Positions 45,719-56,027 of a DNA stretch of 64,000 bases are shown in pieces. The position numbers and the translations under genes were made by a program. This DNA comes from an uncultured Alphaproteobacteria bacterium (GTDB lineage: Bacteria; Pseudomonadota; Alphaproteobacteria; Rhizobiales; Hyphomicrobiaceae). The stretch covers positions 375,089-439,088 of the forward strand of contig CAVZEC010000012.1 of assembly GCA_963774165.1 (NCBI GenBank), written 5' to 3'. Below the pieces are notes generated by a model, which was not told the DNA's origin, did not search any database, and saw nothing but the letters and a program-made list of their open reading frames with translations. How positions within the stretch are numbered: position 1 is the first letter of the stretch; every line of letters begins with the position of its first letter.

Positions 45719-46061
45719 CGCGCGCGGCATGATGCGATGTGACCGGAGCTTAGTGAGACCTCGCTCCCTGCAGTGAGAATACATCGACAAAGGCTGCTCG
45801 GCTCATTGTGTGCGTAACGTGTCCGCGTAGAGCCGCGGCAGCTGGTTGGTTCGGACGCGGTACGCCTTCAACAGCGTCCGATTCGAGGCCAGCCCGGTGG
45901 CTGCGTATCGCCTACCCCGCTGGCGAGCAGTTGCCGGGCTGGCTCTCAGCCCCCTTCGCGCGGTGCGCCTCCCTCGTCACATCCCTGCAACGCGAATCCG
46001 CTCACTTGCCGCCCGCGACATCCGCCACGAGCGGCACATCCGGCACCGCAGGAGGGAACAC

Positions 46062-47315
46062 ATGCTCACGCTTTCCAATGCCACCCGCAGCGCGACCGCC
46101 GAGCTCCTGCAGCAGGCCGTGCACCGCAACAGCGTCTTCAGCCTCGACGGCCTGCGCGAGCGCGCCTTCACGCGCGCGTTCCAGAACCTGGTCTACCCGC
46201 AGATCTGGGAAGACCCGGTCGTGGACCTCGAAGCGCTCGAGATCACGCCGGCCTGCCACGTGCTCGCGATCGCGTCCGGCGGCTGCAACGTGCTGAGCTA
46301 CCTCGTCGCCGATCCCGCGGGGATCACCGCCGTCGACCTCAACAGCGCCCACGTCGCTCTCGTCCGCCTCAAGCTCGCGGCCGCGCGCCATCTCGACAGC
46401 CACGCGCAGCTCTACGCCCTGTTCGGCAACGCCAGCGACCCCGGGAACGTCGGGATCTACGATGAGGTCCTTCGGCCGCGGCTCGACCAGATGACGCAGA
46501 GCTATTGGAACAGCCGCGACGCGTTCGGCCGGCGGCGCATCGAGATGCTCTCTCGCGGCCTCTACCGCTTCGGCCTGCTCGGCCGCTTCATCGCTGCCGT
46601 CCACCTGCTCGGACGCGTGCTCGGCGCCGATCCGCGCCGGATGCTGGACGCGCGCGACCGCGAGGAGCAGCGCGAGATCTATGCGCGCACGCTGGCGCCG
46701 CTCTTCCGGCACCGGCTGGTGCGGTGGATGCTCGACAACCCCGCCTCGTTGTTCGGCCTCGGCATCCCGCCGGCGCAGTATCAGGCACTCGCCGGCAGCA
46801 GTCCCGGCGGCATGGCGGAGGCGATCGAGACGCGGCTGGCGCGACTGGCCTGCGATTTCGACCTCGCGGACAACTATTTCGCCTGGCAGGCCTTCGGCCG
46901 CGGCTATGCGCCGAAGGGCCACGGCGCGCTGCCGCCCTATCTCGAGCCCGCGAACTTTTCGCTCATCAAGGCACGCGCGGCGCGCGTGGACGTGCGGCTC
47001 GTCTCCCTCACCGATCATCTGGTGCGGCAGCGGAACGGGAGCATCGACCGATACGTCCTGCTCGATGCGCAGGACTGGATGACGGACGAGGAGCTCGCCC
47101 GGCTGTGGCGCGAGATCACCCGCACCGCCCGGCGCGGCGCGCGGGTGATCTTCCGCACCGCTGCCGCCGACGCCTCTCTTGCCGAGCGCATCCCGCCGGA
47201 GCTGTCGAGCCGCTGGCGGTACGAGGCCGCACGCTCGGCCGAGTTGCACAAGCGCGACCGCTCCGCGATCTACGGCGGCTTCCACCTCTACGTCCTGCGC
47301 GAGCAAGCCGCGTGA
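46062..47315 (+). CDS. btaA: S-adenosylmethionine:diacylglycerol 3-amino-3-carboxypropyl transferase (DGTS synthesis)
   Basis: The ATG at 46062 is preceded by GGAGGGA. The DUF3419/BtaA pattern reads YPQIWEDPVVDLEAL, VLAIASGGCNVLSYL, NYFAWQAFGRGY, YVLLDAQDWM. Confidence 0.8.
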   Translation: MLTLSNATRSATAELLQQAVHRNSVFSLDGLRERAFTRAFQNLVYPQIWEDPVVDLEALEITPACHVLAIASGGCNVLSYLVADPAGITAVDLNSAHVALVRLKLAAARHLDSHAQLYALFGNASDPGNVGIYDEVLRPRLDQMTQSYWNSRDAFGRRRIEMLSRGLYRFGLLGRFIAAVHLLGRVLGADPRRMLDARDREEQREIYARTLAPLFRHRLVRWMLDNPASLFGLGIPPAQYQALAGSSPGGMAEAIETRLARLACDFDLADNYFAWQAFGRGYAPKGHGALPPYLEPANFSLIKARAARVDVRLVSLTDHLVRQRNGSIDRYVLLDAQDWMTDEELARLWREITRTARRGARVIFRTAAADASLAERIPPELSSRWRYEAARSAELHKRDRSAIYGGFHLYVLREQAA

Positions 47316-47992
47316 GCGCCCCCGCGACCGGCGCCGCGGAGCGCATGGACCGCATCTACGGCAGCCAGCGCTTCATCTACGATGCGACGCGACGGCCCTA
47401 TCTGCTCGGGCGCGCGGCGCTGATCCGGTCGCTGGCGCCACCAACCGGCGGGAGCGTGCTGGAGATCGGCTGCGGCACCGCCTGGAACCTCATACGCGTC
47501 GCGGATCTCTATCCGGACGCCCGCTGCTACGGGCTCGACGTCTCCACGGCCATGCTGGAGACGGCGCGCAGGTCGATCGCGCGCGCGGATCTCGCGCGGC
47601 GCATCGTCGTGGCGCAGGCCGACGCGACCGGCTTCGAGCCGATCGGACTGTTCGGCCGCGCGGCGTTCGATCGCGTCTTCTTCTCCTACTCGCTCTCCAT
47701 GATCCCCGATTGGCGCGGCGCCGTGACCCGCGCTCTGGACTCGGTGGAGATGGATGGGGCGATGCACATCGTCGATTTCGGCCAATGCGACGCGCTTCCG
47801 GCTGCCTTTCGCCACCTGCTGTTCGCCTGGCTCGCCCGCTTCTCGGTGACGCCCATCGCCGACTTCGAGCCGGAGATCGCCCGACTGGCGCAGCTGCGCG
47901 GCTTCACATCCCGCGTCTCCCGCCCCTATCGCGGCTACGCCATCCGCGCCGTGCTCGCCGGCAACGGCGCCTTCGACTCGATGAGTCGTTAG
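47312..47992 (+). CDS. btaB: diacylglycerylhomoserine N-methyltransferase (class I SAM methyltransferase)
   Basis: The GTG at 47312 overlaps the btaA stop (GTGA). The SAM motif I is VLEIGCGTAWNL. The context is immediately after btaA. An alternative start is the ATG at 47345. Confidence 0.75.
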   Translation: MSAPATGAAERMDRIYGSQRFIYDATRRPYLLGRAALIRSLAPPTGGSVLEIGCGTAWNLIRVADLYPDARCYGLDVSTAMLETARRSIARADLARRIVVAQADATGFEPIGLFGRAAFDRVFFSYSLSMIPDWRGAVTRALDSVEMDGAMHIVDFGQCDALPAAFRHLLFAWLARFSVTPIADFEPEIARLAQLRGFTSRVSRPYRGYAIRAVLAGNGAFDSMSR

Positions 47993-50992: not shown

Positions 50993-51871
50993 GTGCAGCG
51001 CTTGCAACGCCGAACCTTCCTGATGTGCACTGCCGCAGCCCTGAGCGAGGCTGCGTTCTCCTCCCTGGCCTGGGCCGTTCCCAAGCCCTACAGCTGGGAG
51101 GCGATGCCGCCCAACGGCAACGGCGAAGCCTTCGTGAAATGGATGGTGGCGAACCGCGGCGAGGACACCCATTTCCTGGCGCAGCGCTTCACCCGCTACC
51201 AGACGCTGGTCGCCAATCGCGACGTGCTCGACGATCGCAACAAGCGCGCCTTCCTGATGACGCCGCGCGAGGAGTTCACGCTCAAGCGTAACCAGGGCCG
51301 CGCCTACGACCACGCCTTCCTCGACATCGGCTACGGAGTGACCATCTCCGGTCCCCACGTCGTCAGCCGCATGACCACTTCGCTCGAGGTGAAGTTCGGC
51401 GAGAAGGTGCTCGAGATCGGCACCGGCTCCGGCTACCAGTCGGCCTACCTTGCCAACCTCACCGACAAGGTCTGGACCGTCGAGATCATCAAGCCGCTCG
51501 CCGAGCGCACCCGCGGCGTCTATGACGGGTTGATCGAGCGCGGCTACAGCGAGTACAAGGCGATCAGCAGCAAGAACGCCGACGGCTACTACGGCTGGCA
51601 GGAGGCAGGGCCGTTCGACAAGATCATCGTCACCTGCGGCATAGACCACGTTCCGCCGCCCTTGCTGCAGCAGCTGAAAGCGGGCGGAGCCATGGTGATC
51701 CCGGTGGGGCCTCCGGGAGCCCAGCGCCTGCTCAAGATCGTCAAGGAGCAGGCTGCCGACGGCATGATGACGGTCACCCGGTCGGACATCTACGGCGGTA
51801 AGATCGTTCCCTTCGTGCCGTTCACCAAGCTCGACGGCGACGCCATCAAGGGGACGCACAACCAGCGGTGA
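50993..51871 (+). CDS. protein-L-isoaspartate O-methyltransferase homologue with a Tat-type signal peptide and N-terminal extension
   Basis: MQRLQRRTFLMCTAAALSEAAFSSLAWA has the twin-arginine pattern RRxFL, a hydrophobic core and an AxA site. The PIMT core is ISGPHVVSRM, VLEIGTGSGYQSAYLA, VWTVEI, GGAMVIPVG. Confidence 0.8.
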   Translation: MQRLQRRTFLMCTAAALSEAAFSSLAWAVPKPYSWEAMPPNGNGEAFVKWMVANRGEDTHFLAQRFTRYQTLVANRDVLDDRNKRAFLMTPREEFTLKRNQGRAYDHAFLDIGYGVTISGPHVVSRMTTSLEVKFGEKVLEIGTGSGYQSAYLANLTDKVWTVEIIKPLAERTRGVYDGLIERGYSEYKAISSKNADGYYGWQEAGPFDKIIVTCGIDHVPPPLLQQLKAGGAMVIPVGPPGAQRLLKIVKEQAADGMMTVTRSDIYGGKIVPFVPFTKLDGDAIKGTHNQR

Positions 51872-54630
51872 GACAGCGCCACGACAAACAACCTCTGTCA
51901 GGATCGGCGGCACGCTTTCGCCACGGGGCCGCGGCATGGCTGGCGCGCGCCGGGCTGGTTGCGCGTGCGGGCTACGACACGACCGCGCGCCGCGTCGGCA
52001 CCTTCAGCGCCAAGCCGATGACCGCGGGAGGCGAAGAGCCGCGGGAGGGCGACGCGGAGCTGCGGCCGACGCCGTTCCTGTACCTATCGGTCGGACTCGT
52101 GGCCGGCGCGGTGATCGCGCTGCAGATCGGCATCATGCGTCTCTTCTCGGTCGGCAGCTGGGCGCATTTCGGCTCGCTGGTGGTGAGCCTCGCCATGCTC
52201 GGCTTCGGCCTGACCAGCGCCATCATGTGCGTGCGCAAGGGCTGGTTCGAGCGGCACTGGCAGCGCGTGGCGATGACCTCGCTGCTGCTGTTCGGCCCGC
52301 TGACGGTGGCGGCCAATCTCGTCGCCCAGCAGATACCCTTCAATGCGATCTTCCTCGTCTCCGACCCGGCGCAGAAGTGGCGGCTGTTCGGCAACTTCCT
52401 GCTCTACATGCTGCCGTTCCTGGCCGGCGCCTTCTATCTGGGGACTGTGTTCCTCAAGGCACAGCGGATCTTCGGGCGCGTCTATTTCGCCGACCTGACG
52501 GGCTCGGGGCTGTGCGGGCTGCTGTTCCTGGGGGCGATGTACTTCGTCACGCCCGAGAACCTGCTGATCGTTCCGCTGGCGCTGTGGCTCGCCGGCAGCG
52601 TGCTGTGGTGCCTGGCCGTCGAGCGCCGGCGGCAGATCGCCTGGCTGGCGGCGACCGCCGTGGCGTGCGTTGCCGTGCACCTGGCGGCGCCGAGCTTCGA
52701 CGTGCCCAACCTCTCGGTTTCCGACTACAAGGGCGTGTCCTACGCGCGCAAGTTCCCCGACGCCGAGCGCGTCTACGAGCGTGCCTCGCCGTTCGGCTAC
52801 CTGGAGGTCTACTCCAGCTCGTATCTGCACTTCGCGCCCGGGCTCTCCGACAACGCGGCGTTCAACCTGCCGACCATGCCCGCCAACGCCTACCTCGGCC
52901 TCTACATCGACGGCGAGGGCCCGAGCGGCATCATCCGCGACCTGCCCGCGGCCGAGACCGCCTATTTCCGCTACCTGCCGATGATCTACCCCTACCTGAT
53001 CAAGGAGGCGCCCGACACCTTCGTCGTGCAGTTCGGCGGCGGCATCTCGACGGCGGTCGCGCTCAAGAGCGACTCCAAGAGCGTGACCGTGGCGGAGGGC
53101 AACCCGGCCGTCCTCAACGCCTTCCGCTACGACCAGGGCCTGCGCGACTTCACCGGCGACGTGCTCAACAACAAGAAGCTCCGGGTCATCGACTACGAGG
53201 GACGGCTGTTTCTCTCCCACACCAAGGACCGCTTCGACATCGTCGACCTGAGCCTCGCCAACTCGGCGGGCCTGTCGAGCCCCGGCGGCTTCGCCATCGT
53301 CGAGAAGTTCGCCTACTCGCGCGAGGCCATGGCGAGCTACATGCGCGCCCTGAAGGACGGCGGCATCCTCTCGGTCACGCTGTGGAACAAGGAGGAGCCG
53401 CCCAAGTCGGTGCTGAAGCTCTATGCCACCATGGCCGAGGCCGCGCGCCAGATCGACGGCGGCAACATCGCCGACCGCTTCTTCGTGTCCTCGAGCTATC
53501 TGTCGACGGCGACGGTGCTCTACAAGCGCGGCGGCTTCACGCCCGAGGAGACGACCAAGCTGCGCACGCACACGCGCGCCATGTCGTTCGACGAGATCTA
53601 CTACCCGGGCTTCGCCTTCGACGCCAAGGACGCCGAGACCGTCCTCAAGGACTACAAGAACTCGATCTTCCCCGACGAGCCGACGGGAGACCCGAACGCC
53701 ACCGATGCGCCCAAGCCCCCGGAGGGGCCGCCGCCGGAGAACGCCGTGCTGCCCGCCACCACGATGGGCCAGATGGCCTGGCACCACCTGGTGCACGGCG
53801 GCTGGGACGAGGTCGCCCGCAAGTATGTGTTCGACTCGCGCCTCCTCACCAATGACCGGCCGTATTTCGCGGCGTACGTGAAGCCGGGCGACCTGCCGCG
53901 CGTGACCGACCGGCTGGAGCTGCTGCAGGACGAATGGGGCTTCCTGCTGGTGTGGGCGACGTTGGGGATCGCCTGCATCGCCGCCCTCTCGCTGGTGCTG
54001 CTGCCGCTCGCCTTCGGTTGGCGCACCATCTTCAGCCGCAATCCCGGCAAGTTCCGCACCATCGTCTATTTCGCCTGCCTGGGTGCGGGCTACATCATGG
54101 TCGAGGTGGGCCTGATCTCGAAGTTCATCCAGGCGCTGAGCAACGCCACGGTCTCGGCCTCCGTGCTCATCACGGGCATGCTGGTGTGCTCGGGGCTGGG
54201 CAGCCTCGTCTCCGAGCGCTACTTCGACAGCGCGCGCACCATCATGCCGCGCATCTTCGTGGCGATCGGAGCGCTGCTGATCGGCTACGGGCTGGCGCTC
54301 GACAGCGTGCTCGACTGGATCGGCACGTTCCCCTATGCGTTGCGGCTGCTGCTCTGCTTCGTGCTGATCTTCCCGCCGGCGTTCCTGATGGGCTTCCCCA
54401 TGCCGATCGCCATGACGTGGCTGTCCCGGCTGGGCAAGGACCACATGTTCCTATGGGCGTGGGGCATCAACGGCTGCTTCTCGGTGGTGGGCGCGGCACT
54501 GGTGCCTGTCATCGCCACCTCGTTCGGACTGGCGGCCGTGCTGATCTTCAGCGGTTGCGCCTACCTGCTGGCGATCTTCGGGTTCTTCGCGGTGCTGTTG
54601 CCGCTGGCGCCCGCCAGAGCCGCGGCGTGA
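51868..54630 (+). CDS. large polytopic membrane protein with a central spermidine-synthase-like (SAM/dcSAM-binding) domain
   Basis: The ORF is 920 aa and intact. An N-terminal block of about 7 TM segments is followed by a soluble domain with FVVQFGGGISTAVAL, VAEGNP and DRFDIVDLSL motifs. A second block of about 6-7 TM segments forms the C-terminus. The GTG at 51868 overlaps the upstream stop (GTGA). A more conservative start is the ATG at 52018. Confidence 0.75.
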   Translation: MRQRHDKQPLSGSAARFRHGAAAWLARAGLVARAGYDTTARRVGTFSAKPMTAGGEEPREGDAELRPTPFLYLSVGLVAGAVIALQIGIMRLFSVGSWAHFGSLVVSLAMLGFGLTSAIMCVRKGWFERHWQRVAMTSLLLFGPLTVAANLVAQQIPFNAIFLVSDPAQKWRLFGNFLLYMLPFLAGAFYLGTVFLKAQRIFGRVYFADLTGSGLCGLLFLGAMYFVTPENLLIVPLALWLAGSVLWCLAVERRRQIAWLAATAVACVAVHLAAPSFDVPNLSVSDYKGVSYARKFPDAERVYERASPFGYLEVYSSSYLHFAPGLSDNAAFNLPTMPANAYLGLYIDGEGPSGIIRDLPAAETAYFRYLPMIYPYLIKEAPDTFVVQFGGGISTAVALKSDSKSVTVAEGNPAVLNAFRYDQGLRDFTGDVLNNKKLRVIDYEGRLFLSHTKDRFDIVDLSLANSAGLSSPGGFAIVEKFAYSREAMASYMRALKDGGILSVTLWNKEEPPKSVLKLYATMAEAARQIDGGNIADRFFVSSSYLSTATVLYKRGGFTPEETTKLRTHTRAMSFDEIYYPGFAFDAKDAETVLKDYKNSIFPDEPTGDPNATDAPKPPEGPPPENAVLPATTMGQMAWHHLVHGGWDEVARKYVFDSRLLTNDRPYFAAYVKPGDLPRVTDRLELLQDEWGFLLVWATLGIACIAALSLVLLPLAFGWRTIFSRNPGKFRTIVYFACLGAGYIMVEVGLISKFIQALSNATVSASVLITGMLVCSGLGSLVSERYFDSARTIMPRIFVAIGALLIGYGLALDSVLDWIGTFPYALRLLLCFVLIFPPAFLMGFPMPIAMTWLSRLGKDHMFLWAWGINGCFSVVGAALVPVIATSFGLAAVLIFSGCAYLLAIFGFFAVLLPLAPARAAA

Positions 54631-54631
54631 C

Positions 54632-55624
54632 GTGCGCGGCACCGGCGTCCGCCGCCTGCTCGCGCGCCTGATCCCGGCTCTCGTTGCCTTGGGCCCTGCC
54701 ATGCAAAGCCCGGCAAATGCCGCGCAGACCGGAGCCGCGAGAACCGAGCTCGTCGCCTTCGACAATTCACCGTTCCCCTACTCCGGCCAGCCGCCGGGCC
54801 AGGACAAGCCGTTCTTCGACGTCGAGAAGGACGGCCGGCGCGGGCATACCTCTCCGCGCGGCGGCATCTATTGGGAGGACGCCACCTACAGCGACCGCCG
54901 CGTGCTGCTGCACATCCCACGCGGGTTCAATGCGGCGCTGCCGGCGGTGATGGTCGTCTACTTCCACGGCAACCTCGCCAACCTCGAGGGCGTCGTGCAC
55001 CGCCACCAGCAGGTGCCGCGGCAGCTCTCGGAGTCGGGTCTGAACGCGGTGCTGGTGGCGCCGCAGCTCGCGGTCAACGCCGCGGATTCGAGCGCCGGGC
55101 GCTTCTACGATGCCGGCCATTTCCGCCGCTTCGTGGAGGAGGCGGGAGTCCGTCTCGCGAAGCTGCACGGCGACCAGCGCGCGCGGGGGGCCATCGAGAG
55201 CCTGCCGGTGATCGTCTTCGCCTACAGCGGCGGCTATGCGCCCGCCGCGTGGTCCGCGCACCACGGAGGCATCGGCGACCGCCTGCGCGGCATTATCCTG
55301 TTCGACGCGCTCTACGCCGAGATGGACAAGTTCGCCGCCTGGATCGAGCACCGCGAGTCCGCGTTCTTCTTCAGCGCCTACACGCGCTCCGCCCGCGACG
55401 AGAACCTGGTGCTGCAGAAGATGCTGGCCGAGCGGAGGGTCGATTTCACCACCGCTCTGCCCGCGCGCCTGGGACCCGGGCGGGTCGCATTCTATGCGAC
55501 GGCGGAGGAGATCACGCACAGCGAGTTCGTCAGCAAGGCCTGGGTGGACGATCCGCTGCGCGAGACGCTGGCGAAGATCCCCGGCTACCCCCGCACGCCC
55601 CCGCCCAAGGCCCGCAAGCGCTGA
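54632..55624 (+). CDS. secreted hypothetical protein, possibly alpha/beta-hydrolase-like
   Basis: The GTG start lies 1 nt after the upstream stop. The signal-like N-terminus is RRLLARLIPALVALGPAMQSPANA. VVYFHGN and VIVFAYSGGY resemble an oxyanion-hole/nucleophile-elbow arrangement, but this is weak. Confidence 0.6.
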   Translation: MRGTGVRRLLARLIPALVALGPAMQSPANAAQTGAARTELVAFDNSPFPYSGQPPGQDKPFFDVEKDGRRGHTSPRGGIYWEDATYSDRRVLLHIPRGFNAALPAVMVVYFHGNLANLEGVVHRHQQVPRQLSESGLNAVLVAPQLAVNAADSSAGRFYDAGHFRRFVEEAGVRLAKLHGDQRARGAIESLPVIVFAYSGGYAPAAWSAHHGGIGDRLRGIILFDALYAEMDKFAAWIEHRESAFFFSAYTRSARDENLVLQKMLAERRVDFTTALPARLGPGRVAFYATAEEITHSEFVSKAWVDDPLRETLAKIPGYPRTPPPKARKR

Positions 55625-55637
55625 GGCTCGCGCCGCC

Positions 55638-56027
55638 TGGAAGTCGATCCTGTCCAACAAGGGAATCCTGCCCTTGTTGTGGGAGATGGCGCCGCGACAC
55701 CCGAACCTGCTGCCGGCGTACTTCGAGGACGACCCGGCACGCGCGCGGCTGCAGGGTCGCTACGCCAAGAAGCCGCTCTACTCACGCGAGGGTCAGAACG
55801 TGCTGCTCATCGACGGCGACATGGTCGTCGACCGGGACGGCGGCCTCTACGGCAACAACGGCTTCGTCGTGCAGCAGCTGGCGAGGATGCCGCAGTTCGA
55901 CGGCAACTATCCGGTAATCGGCAGCTGGGTCATCGGCGACGCCCCCGGCGGCATCGGCATACGCGAGGACGTCACCCCCATCACCAAGAACACGTCGCGG
56001 TTCATTCCCCACGCGATCGAGCCGTGA
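55638..56027 (+). pseudogene. 3' remnant of a glutathionylspermidine synthase family (GspS-like, ATP-grasp) gene
   Basis: WKSILSNKGILPLLWEMAPRHPNLLPAYFEDD...YAKKPLYSREGQNV...FDGNYPVIGSWVIGDAPGGIGIREDVTPITKNTSRFIPHAIEP matches the conserved C-terminal ~130 aa of the family. There is no N-terminal two-thirds and no start codon at the homology boundary. The upstream part of ORF 55236..56027 overlaps the preceding real gene. Confidence 0.7.

Follow-up and report, generated by a model that had tools for sequence, protein, structure and literature searches.

We report that an exported homologue of isoaspartyl methyltransferase (PIMT) and a membrane protein with 14 transmembrane (TM) helices and a spermidine-synthase (SpeE) fold constitute a real and widespread two-gene module, of which a contig from an uncultured alphaproteobacterium of the Hyphomicrobiaceae carries a three-gene version. 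The window analyzed here is a stretch of 64,000 nucleotides (nt) from contig CAVZEC010000012.1, and the positions given for it below count from its first letter. The three genes, termed g1, g2 and g3, are arranged as follows:

50993-51871, + strand, open reading frame (ORF): g1, exported PIMT homologue of 292 residues
51868-54630, + strand, ORF: g2, polytopic membrane protein of 920 residues with a central spermidine-synthase-fold domain
54632-55624, + strand, ORF: g3, secreted α/β-hydrolase of 330 residues

The original prediction, made from the letters of the window, had described three co-directional ORFs joined by a GTGA overlap and a 1-nt gap, and both coordinates and junctions match the sequence. 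g1 starts with GTG at 50993; its TGA stop (51869-51871) overlaps the GTG of g2 (51868-51870), and the stop of g2 (54628-54630) is followed after one nucleotide by the GTG of g3 at 54632. The same prediction had called the trio the best candidate in the window for an undescribed system. Our search of the literature on exported or periplasmic PIMT, periplasmic S-adenosylmethionine (AdoMet) and membrane spermidine-synthase-like proteins found no description of the PIMT-g2 pair, and the module is apparently undescribed; what had to be revised is its extent, as the core is a pair and not a trio.

The unity of the module was established from gene neighborhoods. The g2 family comprises 7816 representative clusters (50% identity) at E<1e-3, with a typical member of about 800 residues and about 30% identity. 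We compared 95 related loci, consisting of 90 relatives at ≥35% identity and five plasmid loci of a divergent clade (clade 2); by another division, 82 of them have a g2 identity of ≥62%, six more distant ones come from metagenomes and seven are plasmid records, including the five of clade 2. g1 adjoins g2 in 81 of the 87 informative loci of this set, and g3 adjoins g2 in 56 of 88, frequencies well beyond what chance would give. The identities of g1 and g2 are correlated (r=0.84), 4-nt g1/g2 overlaps recur across loci, and the flanking genes vary from locus to locus. The hosts are mostly Hyphomicrobiales, Reyranella, Roseiarcus, Beijerinckiaceae and Rhodospirillales, among them the cultured Prosthecomicrobium hirschii and Rhizobium jaguaris.

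Clade 2, whose g2 proteins are about 30% identical and about 780-830 residues long, repeats the pairing. Among 80 clade-2 metagenome loci, the PIMT adjoins g2 on the same strand in 66 of the 67 informative ones and g3 in none, and no other neighbor family occurs in more than five of the 80. The clade is also found on megaplasmids of Microvirga, Phyllobacterium, Sinorhizobium and Paraburkholderia, with the PIMT directly upstream of g2. These data show that g1 and g2 are an almost obligate pair, often translationally overlapped, in two divergent clades. What is conserved is a core of two genes, the exported PIMT and g2, to which g3 is an accessory. Synteny across alphaproteobacteria, on which the original prediction had staked the trio, therefore holds for the PIMT-g2 pair but only partly for g3, which is missing from clade 2 altogether.

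As judged from its motifs, g1 is a PIMT with intact AdoMet-binding and isoaspartate-binding elements. Two features were delimited within it:

50993-51076, + strand: twin-arginine signal peptide, residues 1-28 (QRRTFL, Ala-rich h-region, AWA followed by VP)
51206-51778, + strand: PCMT catalytic domain, residues 72-262 (Pfam match and alignment to solved Pcm structures)

The protein matches PF01135 (PCMT) over residues 72-262 with an E value of 7e-42 and 144 bits (cut-off 20.3), and it stays below all NCBIfam Pcm equivalog cut-offs (NF001453, 162.7 of 188 bits; TIGR00080, 142 of 159; NF010549, 147 of 282). Its motifs GVTISGP, VLEIGTGSGYQ, NADGYYGW, PFDKIIVTCG and GGAMVIPVG align with the E. coli, V. 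cholerae and archaeal Pcm structures, so that the isoaspartate-binding T-I-S loop, motif I (EIGTGSGY), DG..GW, PFD.IIVT and GG.MVIPVG are all kept. g1 thus shares fold and motifs with canonical PIMT/Pcm (PF01135, EC 2.1.1.77). However, Pcm is cytoplasmic, whereas g1 has a leader of the twin-arginine translocation (Tat) type, replaced in relatives by Sec or lipoprotein leaders, and about 45 additional N-terminal residues in its mature form; its gene is tied to that of a polytopic membrane protein and does not lie in a surE-pcm-nlpD context. The extension had been put at about 80 residues; it exists, but consists of the 28-residue leader plus those 45 or so mature residues.

The N-terminus of g1 encodes MQRLQRRTFLMCTAAALSEAAFSSLAWA ahead of VP. 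Read as a sequence, this leader (MQRLQRRTFLM-CTAAALSEAAFSSLAWA, then VP) has the features of a Tat substrate, namely a twin-arginine motif, a mildly hydrophobic, Ala-rich h-region and an AxA site. The Tat leader that had been predicted for the PIMT homologue is conserved, with an RRxF[LVI]-type motif in 64 of 75 g1 orthologues. Because the orthologues without this motif have Sec-like or lipobox leaders instead (L030; L051 with LVLSAC), export, by whichever pathway, appears to be the conserved property of g1. The PIMTs of clade 2 carry classic Sec leaders, for example MARTLVLLATALPLLTAAAA ahead of EPD, and a strongly hydrophobic leader is present in 42 of 43 complete clade-2 metagenome PIMT ORFs; the leaders of the g1 clade are less hydrophobic. 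Taken together, leaders are kept at the protein level in more than 100 loci while switching between Tat, Sec and lipobox types. The module is syntenic in many Alphaproteobacteria, as had been supposed, but a scope restricted to alphaproteobacterial Tat-signal proteins was too narrow, since the module is wider and its second clade uses Sec leaders.

A defense-system reading was also considered. g1 matches the PADLOC model 'mad2' (mads_2) with an E value of 1.2e-14 in the methyltransferase core only, and no PADLOC defense model is matched by g2 or g3. We rejected this reading, taking the mad2 match as generic class-I methyltransferase similarity, since the other two genes are without a defense-model match.

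The second member of the core, g2, is divided as follows:

52072-52698, + strand: N-terminal block of seven TM helices, residues 69-277 (AlphaFold2 and hydropathy)
52714-53457, + strand: spermidine-synthase-fold domain, residues 283-530, predicted periplasmic (Foldseek and profile)
53458-53925, + strand: extra α/β domain of 155 residues, residues 531-686, with a (T/S)(D/N)(D/N)(R/K)P(Y/F)F motif conserved in all clades
53926-54606, + strand: C-terminal block of seven TM helices, residues 687-913 (AlphaFold2 helices)

The AlphaFold2 model of g2 (pLDDT 85.8, pTM 0.85) consists of seven helices (residues 69-96, 99-122, 131-155, 167-197, 202-223, 234-250 and 255-277), a soluble region at residues 283-686 and seven more helices, the central soluble region amounting to about 415 residues in total. 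The quoted motifs VQFGGGISTAVAL and DRFDIVDLSL are indeed present, inside the spermidine-synthase-fold domain and between the two 7-TM blocks. E/Q86 sits in TM1 and R91 is nearly invariant, and the C-terminal block contains an invariant membrane-embedded E746 (TM9), invariant N868 and G869, and a WAWG(I/V)NG motif. The motif of the extra domain takes the form LTNDRPYF (residues 660-667) in the window. The start of g2 is uncertain: most homologues begin near residue 50-62, and the Arg-rich N-terminal extension is kept at the protein level in several loci.

Sequence searches placed g2 in no characterized family. At gathering score it has no Pfam family (PF01564, 10.7 bits against a cut-off of 22.9), and its sole NCBIfam match is a weak one to PRK03612 (18.7 bits against 472). 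NF037959, the fused MFS/spermidine synthase family, does not match the g2 of the window and matches one of 36 diverse relatives at E 0.004; PF01564 reaches E<0.01 in 21 of the same 36. A sequence search of g2 against PDB chains found nothing. The isolated TM blocks and the extra domain gave only noise against Pfam at E ≤10, with MFS_1 at E 1.7-2.1 on the TM blocks. An internal duplication of the TM blocks, as in the 6+6 arrangement of MFS proteins, was not supported when the N- and C-terminal blocks were compared by hhalign in four slicings (probability <1%, E ≥0.1). A profile search for distant members in a database of 5.8 billion proteins with alignment A2 returned close relatives only; A2 was too diverse for the genome scan, for which alignment A3 was used.

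Structure and profile comparisons, on the other hand, identify the fold of the central domain. The top 34 among the PDB matches listed by Foldseek are polyamine aminopropyltransferases, mostly spermidine synthases (E 4e-6), with a target TM-score of 0.55-0.58 over about 300 columns that include the SpeE-specific N-terminal β domain. A profile of the 36 diverse relatives matched SpeE sequences with an E value of 5.6e-13.

The active site was compared by profile alignment to 1UIR, extended to 17 proteins from all clades. The glycine-rich loop (G390-G392) and the ribose-binding acid E410 (VAEGNP) are kept, the latter as E or D in all clades. By contrast, the GGG(D/E)G acid responsible for binding the aminopropyl amine of decarboxylated AdoMet (dcAdoMet) is I393 in g2 (GGGIS) and varies in the family between I, E, L, A and G; the SpeE catalytic Asp (Tm D170, Hs D173) is replaced by S459 within a family-wide 'LSL' motif, and the catalytic Tyr (Hs Y79) by R365. 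A second SpeE active-site Asp is shared by 190 of 196 family members; the g2 of the window has Asn instead (N462, nt 53251-53253). Asn also occupies this position of the LSLxD(S/A) motif in P0025, P0060, P0062 and P0316. New motifs, SxYKG, APGLS and (T/S)(D/N)(D/N)(R/K)P(Y/F)F, are found throughout the g2 family. By its residues, then, g2 is not a member of the aminopropyltransferases as these are defined, and it probably still binds an adenosyl ligand. The proposal of an aminopropyltransferase-like domain binding AdoMet or dcAdoMet survives for the fold, but as an aminopropyltransferase the domain is not credible, since it retains neither the dcAdoMet acid nor the catalytic Asp or Tyr.

The comparison with characterized SpeE proteins (1INL, 1UIR and 3O4F) can be summarized in the same terms. 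The central domain of g2 has their two-part fold (N-terminal β domain and Rossmann domain), their glycine loop and their ribose-binding acid. It is only 13-16% identical to them, has Ile, Ser and Arg for the dcAdoMet-binding Asp, catalytic Asp and catalytic Tyr, is inserted between two 7-TM blocks in a predicted periplasmic position, and is accompanied by the 155-residue domain with DRPYF.

The nearest described relatives of g2 are the 7TM-SpeE proteins found in PspA operons and orphan MFS-SpdSyn-like fusions. Fusions of the latter kind, with a link to AdoMet decarboxylase, were reportedly described by Li, Kurihara, Kim, Liang and Michael in 2019 (Biochem J 476:2579). 7TM-SpeE fusions occur in PspA operons, and their membrane part has been described as 'transporter-like' (PMC11237479). 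Both groups are membrane-embedded SpeE-like orphan proteins that make no spermidine, as is predicted for g2. However, their membrane domain is N-terminal and their SpeE-like domain C-terminal, in contrast to the 7TM-domain-7TM order of g2, and they are linked to speD, DUF350 or GSP-synthetase-like genes, whereas g2 is linked to an exported PIMT. A conserved linkage of g2 to AdoMet decarboxylase, DUF350 or GSP-synthetase-like genes was not encountered, the PIMT being its only conserved neighbor.

A periplasmic location of the central domain of g2, whose side of the membrane the original prediction had left open, is strongly indicated by the charge bias of its loops, a natural fusion and the lack of cysteines. 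Lys and Arg in the short loops of g2 favor the face opposite the central domain by 25 to 8 in a first loop count and by 25 to 5 in a second; over 27 g2 proteins the count is 505 to 193, and 25 of the 27 agree. The fusion, P0243, is a g2::g3 protein of 1162 residues that is 47% identical to g2. Its g2 part is followed by RR, an additional hydrophobic helix and a g3-like hydrolase domain, in this order. Since the stand-alone g3 has a signal peptide and P0243 adds one TM helix before the g3 domain, the C-terminus of g2 is predicted to be cytoplasmic, and, with seven helices following the central domain, that domain would be periplasmic. No cysteine is present in the 415-residue domain.

The accessory gene g3 is, by sequence and model, a secreted α/β-hydrolase with a predicted Ser-Asp-His triad that belongs to an unclassified subfamily. 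Its leader covers residues 1-30 (ANA followed by A). H112-G113-N114 (oxyanion), S199 (AYSGGY, nt 55226-55228), D225 and H296 are invariant in 34 g3 homologues, in keeping with the AYSGG elbow-like motif that had been noted, along with the signal peptide, for the third product. In the AlphaFold2 model (pLDDT 89.7), S199 sits at a strand-turn-helix elbow and HGN follows β3, which is the canonical α/β-hydrolase layout. Foldseek retrieved DPP4 catalytic domains and HSL-type and feruloyl esterases with a probability of 1.0 and E values of about 1e-6, with TM-scores of only 0.35-0.45. No Pfam, NCBIfam or PADLOC family matched g3, and no sequence relative in the PDB was found below E 0.1. The claim that no characterized family accounts for g2 or g3 is thus upheld at the thresholds of Pfam and NCBIfam.

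Based on these observations, we tentatively favor a putative mechanism in which the locus is an extracytoplasmic module for PIMT-type carboxyl methylation or isoaspartyl repair, with g2 supplying AdoMet to the exported PIMT. We know of no AdoMet source in the periplasm, and Sec-exported PIMTs cannot carry AdoMet pre-bound; for these two reasons g2 is proposed as the AdoMet carrier. It would bring AdoMet across the inner membrane, being the only candidate in a self-sufficient two-gene module, and transport might proceed via the membrane-embedded acidic residues E/Q86 (TM1) and E746 (TM9), which would suit a cationic substrate. AdoMet would then be held in the periplasmic nucleotide-binding domain of g2 and handed to g1. 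In return, g2 could possibly take back S-adenosylhomocysteine, a potent product inhibitor. g1 would methylate free α-carboxyls (isoaspartate or D-Asp) of envelope proteins, leading to succinimide-mediated repair, and the accessory g3 may process the methyl-ester or succinimide product or degrade irreparable peptides. Tat export of an AdoMet-preloaded PIMT was considered as a general mechanism and rejected, as the leaders of clade 2 and of some clade-1 partners are of the Sec or lipoprotein type. Of the envelope-located alkyl- or methyl-transfer and repair module of the original prediction, methyl transfer and repair in the envelope is the best reading, while aminopropyl transfer is not credible for g2.

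The system closest in logic is MsrPQ (YedYZ), in which a Tat-exported periplasmic enzyme repairs methionine sulfoxide and a membrane partner supplies the missing cofactor. As in the PIMT-g2 pair, an exported repair enzyme is encoded beside an integral membrane supplier. The likeness is one of analogy only: proteins and chemistry are unrelated, MsrPQ working by molybdopterin and heme electron transfer and not by AdoMet methylation, and the supply role of g2 is putative.

Several points weigh against this proposal. We infer both AdoMet binding and AdoMet transport by g2, and its topology is a prediction from a crude hydropathy and charge script together with one fusion. The TM blocks of g2 match no Pfam transporter family, and no transporter is among the 50 PDB matches listed. 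The conserved motifs of g2 (SxYKG, APGLS, LSLxD and DRPYF) suggest catalysis or specific ligand binding more than a passive relay. AdoMet that is free in the periplasm would be lost through porins. The proposal explains the role of g3 only weakly, as the action of a methyl-esterase would serve no end in classical PIMT repair. Furthermore, no PIMT lies beside some g2 relatives of 23-31% identity (L083, L087 and the Legionella locus L093), so at least part of what the family does must be independent of PIMT.

The conserved motifs and the relatives without PIMT also count for the main rival, in which the periplasmic SpeE-fold domain of g2 is the principal enzyme, performing alkyl transfer to an envelope substrate, and the PIMT and g3 act before or after it. 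The transferred group could be a methyl or 3-amino-3-carboxypropyl group from AdoMet, or come from another donor, and the acceptor could be a lipid, a glycan, a peptidoglycan stem peptide or a protein amine; one example would be the methyl-esterification of a free α-carboxyl (D-iso-Glu or meso-diaminopimelate, mDAP) that resembles isoaspartate. We consider this rival less likely than the favored mechanism. The family-wide motifs of the periplasmic domain and the near-invariant second SpeE Asp (190/196) speak for it, the loss of the acid that selects dcAdoMet over AdoMet is compatible with the use of AdoMet, and one of the relatives without PIMT adjoins a YkuD L,D-transpeptidase. Nevertheless, the catalytic Asp and Tyr of the aminopropyltransferases are gone, no conserved neighbor hints at a substrate pathway, the supply of the donor remains a problem, and the tight pairing with the PIMT in two clades argues that the PIMT is central and not auxiliary. 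A further variant, with a low probability in our estimate, keeps g2 as an AdoMet export and relay machine but gives the methylation a second purpose besides repair: PIMT esters on envelope proteins or peptidoglycan would serve as an ATP-free activation of carboxyls, and g3 or the amine-binding SpeE-like domain would turn the ester or succinimide into new amide bonds (cross-links or polyamine attachment).

The module might also be non-catalytic, with g1 as a structural or sensing subunit for isoaspartate-damaged or other ligands and g2 as a transporter or sensor, polyamines being one example of what it might recognize and the SpeE-like domain a ligand-binding pseudoenzyme. The loss of the SpeE catalytic residues and the lack of a known periplasmic AdoMet source would suit such a module. 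A precedent exists in CI-PIMT of Paracoccus complex I and RPA2580 of R. palustris, catalytically dead PIMT paralogues that have been recruited as inactive structural subunits (PMC11522691). These resemble g1 as alphaproteobacterial PIMT paralogues recruited to membrane complexes, yet they are cytoplasmic and have lost the Thr/Ser and Asp/Gly catalytic residues, whereas g1 and its clade-2 counterparts keep T-I-S, the DG cofactor residues and motif I, and g1 has an export leader. As the glycine loop and ribose-binding acid of g2 are likewise conserved in all clades, we regard a non-catalytic module as improbable. Even less can be said for ordinary cytoplasmic metabolism, that is, a Pcm beside a membrane-bound spermidine synthase and an unrelated hydrolase, with signal peptides that are start-codon artefacts. 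Source annotations of g2 relatives do read 'spermidine synthase' or 'SAM-dependent methyltransferase', and one clade-2 PIMT is annotated by NCBI with a short start. However, leaders that are conserved in more than 100 loci while switching between Tat, Sec and lipobox types are hardly artefacts, g2 lacks the aminopropyltransferase catalytic residues and scores 10.7 bits against PF01564, under the cut-off of 22.9, and charge bias and the g2::g3 fusion put its domain outside the cytoplasm; we hold this explanation to be very improbable. Both the non-catalytic and the cytoplasmic readings fit the conserved catalytic motifs and leaders poorly.

If the favored mechanism is correct, the module would be PIMT-type carboxyl methylation moved outside the cytoplasm, and g2, as an AdoMet conduit, would be categorically new. 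Without ATP, NAD(P)H and AdoMet, the periplasm offers limited scope for protein repair and covalent modification, and MsrPQ is, to our knowledge, one of the few systems that overcome this lack of cofactors. The pair implies either that AdoMet is delivered outside the cytoplasmic membrane or that the folds have been repurposed for AdoMet-independent chemistry, and either would be new. Either would also raise the question of how slow-growing bacteria of soil and sediment control isoaspartate damage in their envelope, and would provide a first way into the function of a very large orphan family, the membrane 'spermidine synthase-like' proteins. Cultured hosts are available in Prosthecomicrobium hirschii, Rhizobium jaguaris, Microvirga ossetica, Phyllobacterium zundukense and Paraburkholderia hospita.

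Within the window, G+C content is even across the trio region (about 67-68%), no second copy of PIMT, g2 or g3 is present, and a promoter and terminator scan gave counts no better than those of shuffled sequence. One further feature lies at the right edge of the trio and outside the system:

55635-56027, + strand: PF03738 remnant (glutathionylspermidine-synthase family) of 130 residues, matching profile positions 246-371 of 371 only (E 4e-47)

The remnant begins 11 nt after the stop of g3 and covers only the C-terminal third of the profile. It has no 5' part in the window and no counterpart in the 95 related loci, and it is probably a truncated pseudogene at a rearrangement or insertion boundary. 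Two overlapping ORFs at 45846-47992 on the + strand, about 3 kb upstream of the trio, encode first a DUF3419 protein (BtaA-like, E 1.7e-107) and then a class-I methyltransferase. This pair resembles btaA/btaB of betaine-lipid (DGTS) synthesis, which is AdoMet-dependent; no link to the trio was established.

Individual loci among the relatives depart from the common arrangement. On plasmid pRCCGE525c of R. jaguaris (L089, 4918-8550), g1 is divergent from g2, the only such case among the 81 adjacent pairs, and g3 is absent. In three loci with g2 proteins of 74-75% identity (L004, L006 and L007), the 6 kb upstream of g2 contain no g1, and L006 is also without g3; their g1 may lie elsewhere in the genome or may have been lost. 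On a Paraburkholderia sp. PGU19 plasmid (L092, NZ_AP023183.1, 4110-4880), the RefSeq start seems to leave the PIMT (WP_243469226, MSSGVHAADD...) too short: its ORF extends upstream with a Sec-type leader, MLRWLRTLIPAIALVWMSSGVHA ahead of ADD, which is also found in P. hospita (L095).

Other loci have distinctive neighbors. On plasmid 9 of Legionella adelaidensis (L093, 4710-7397), the gene immediately upstream of the g2 relative (23% identity) belongs to the Trm112 family, whose members activate several methyltransferases. An 861-residue TPR protein is encoded immediately upstream of the PIMT-g2 pair in L085 (471-3935), and a 600-residue YkuD (L,D-transpeptidase) protein and a 937-residue protein adjoin the PIMT-less g2 relative in L087 (968-5760). 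The neighbors in these last two loci may be hints of an envelope or peptidoglycan context.

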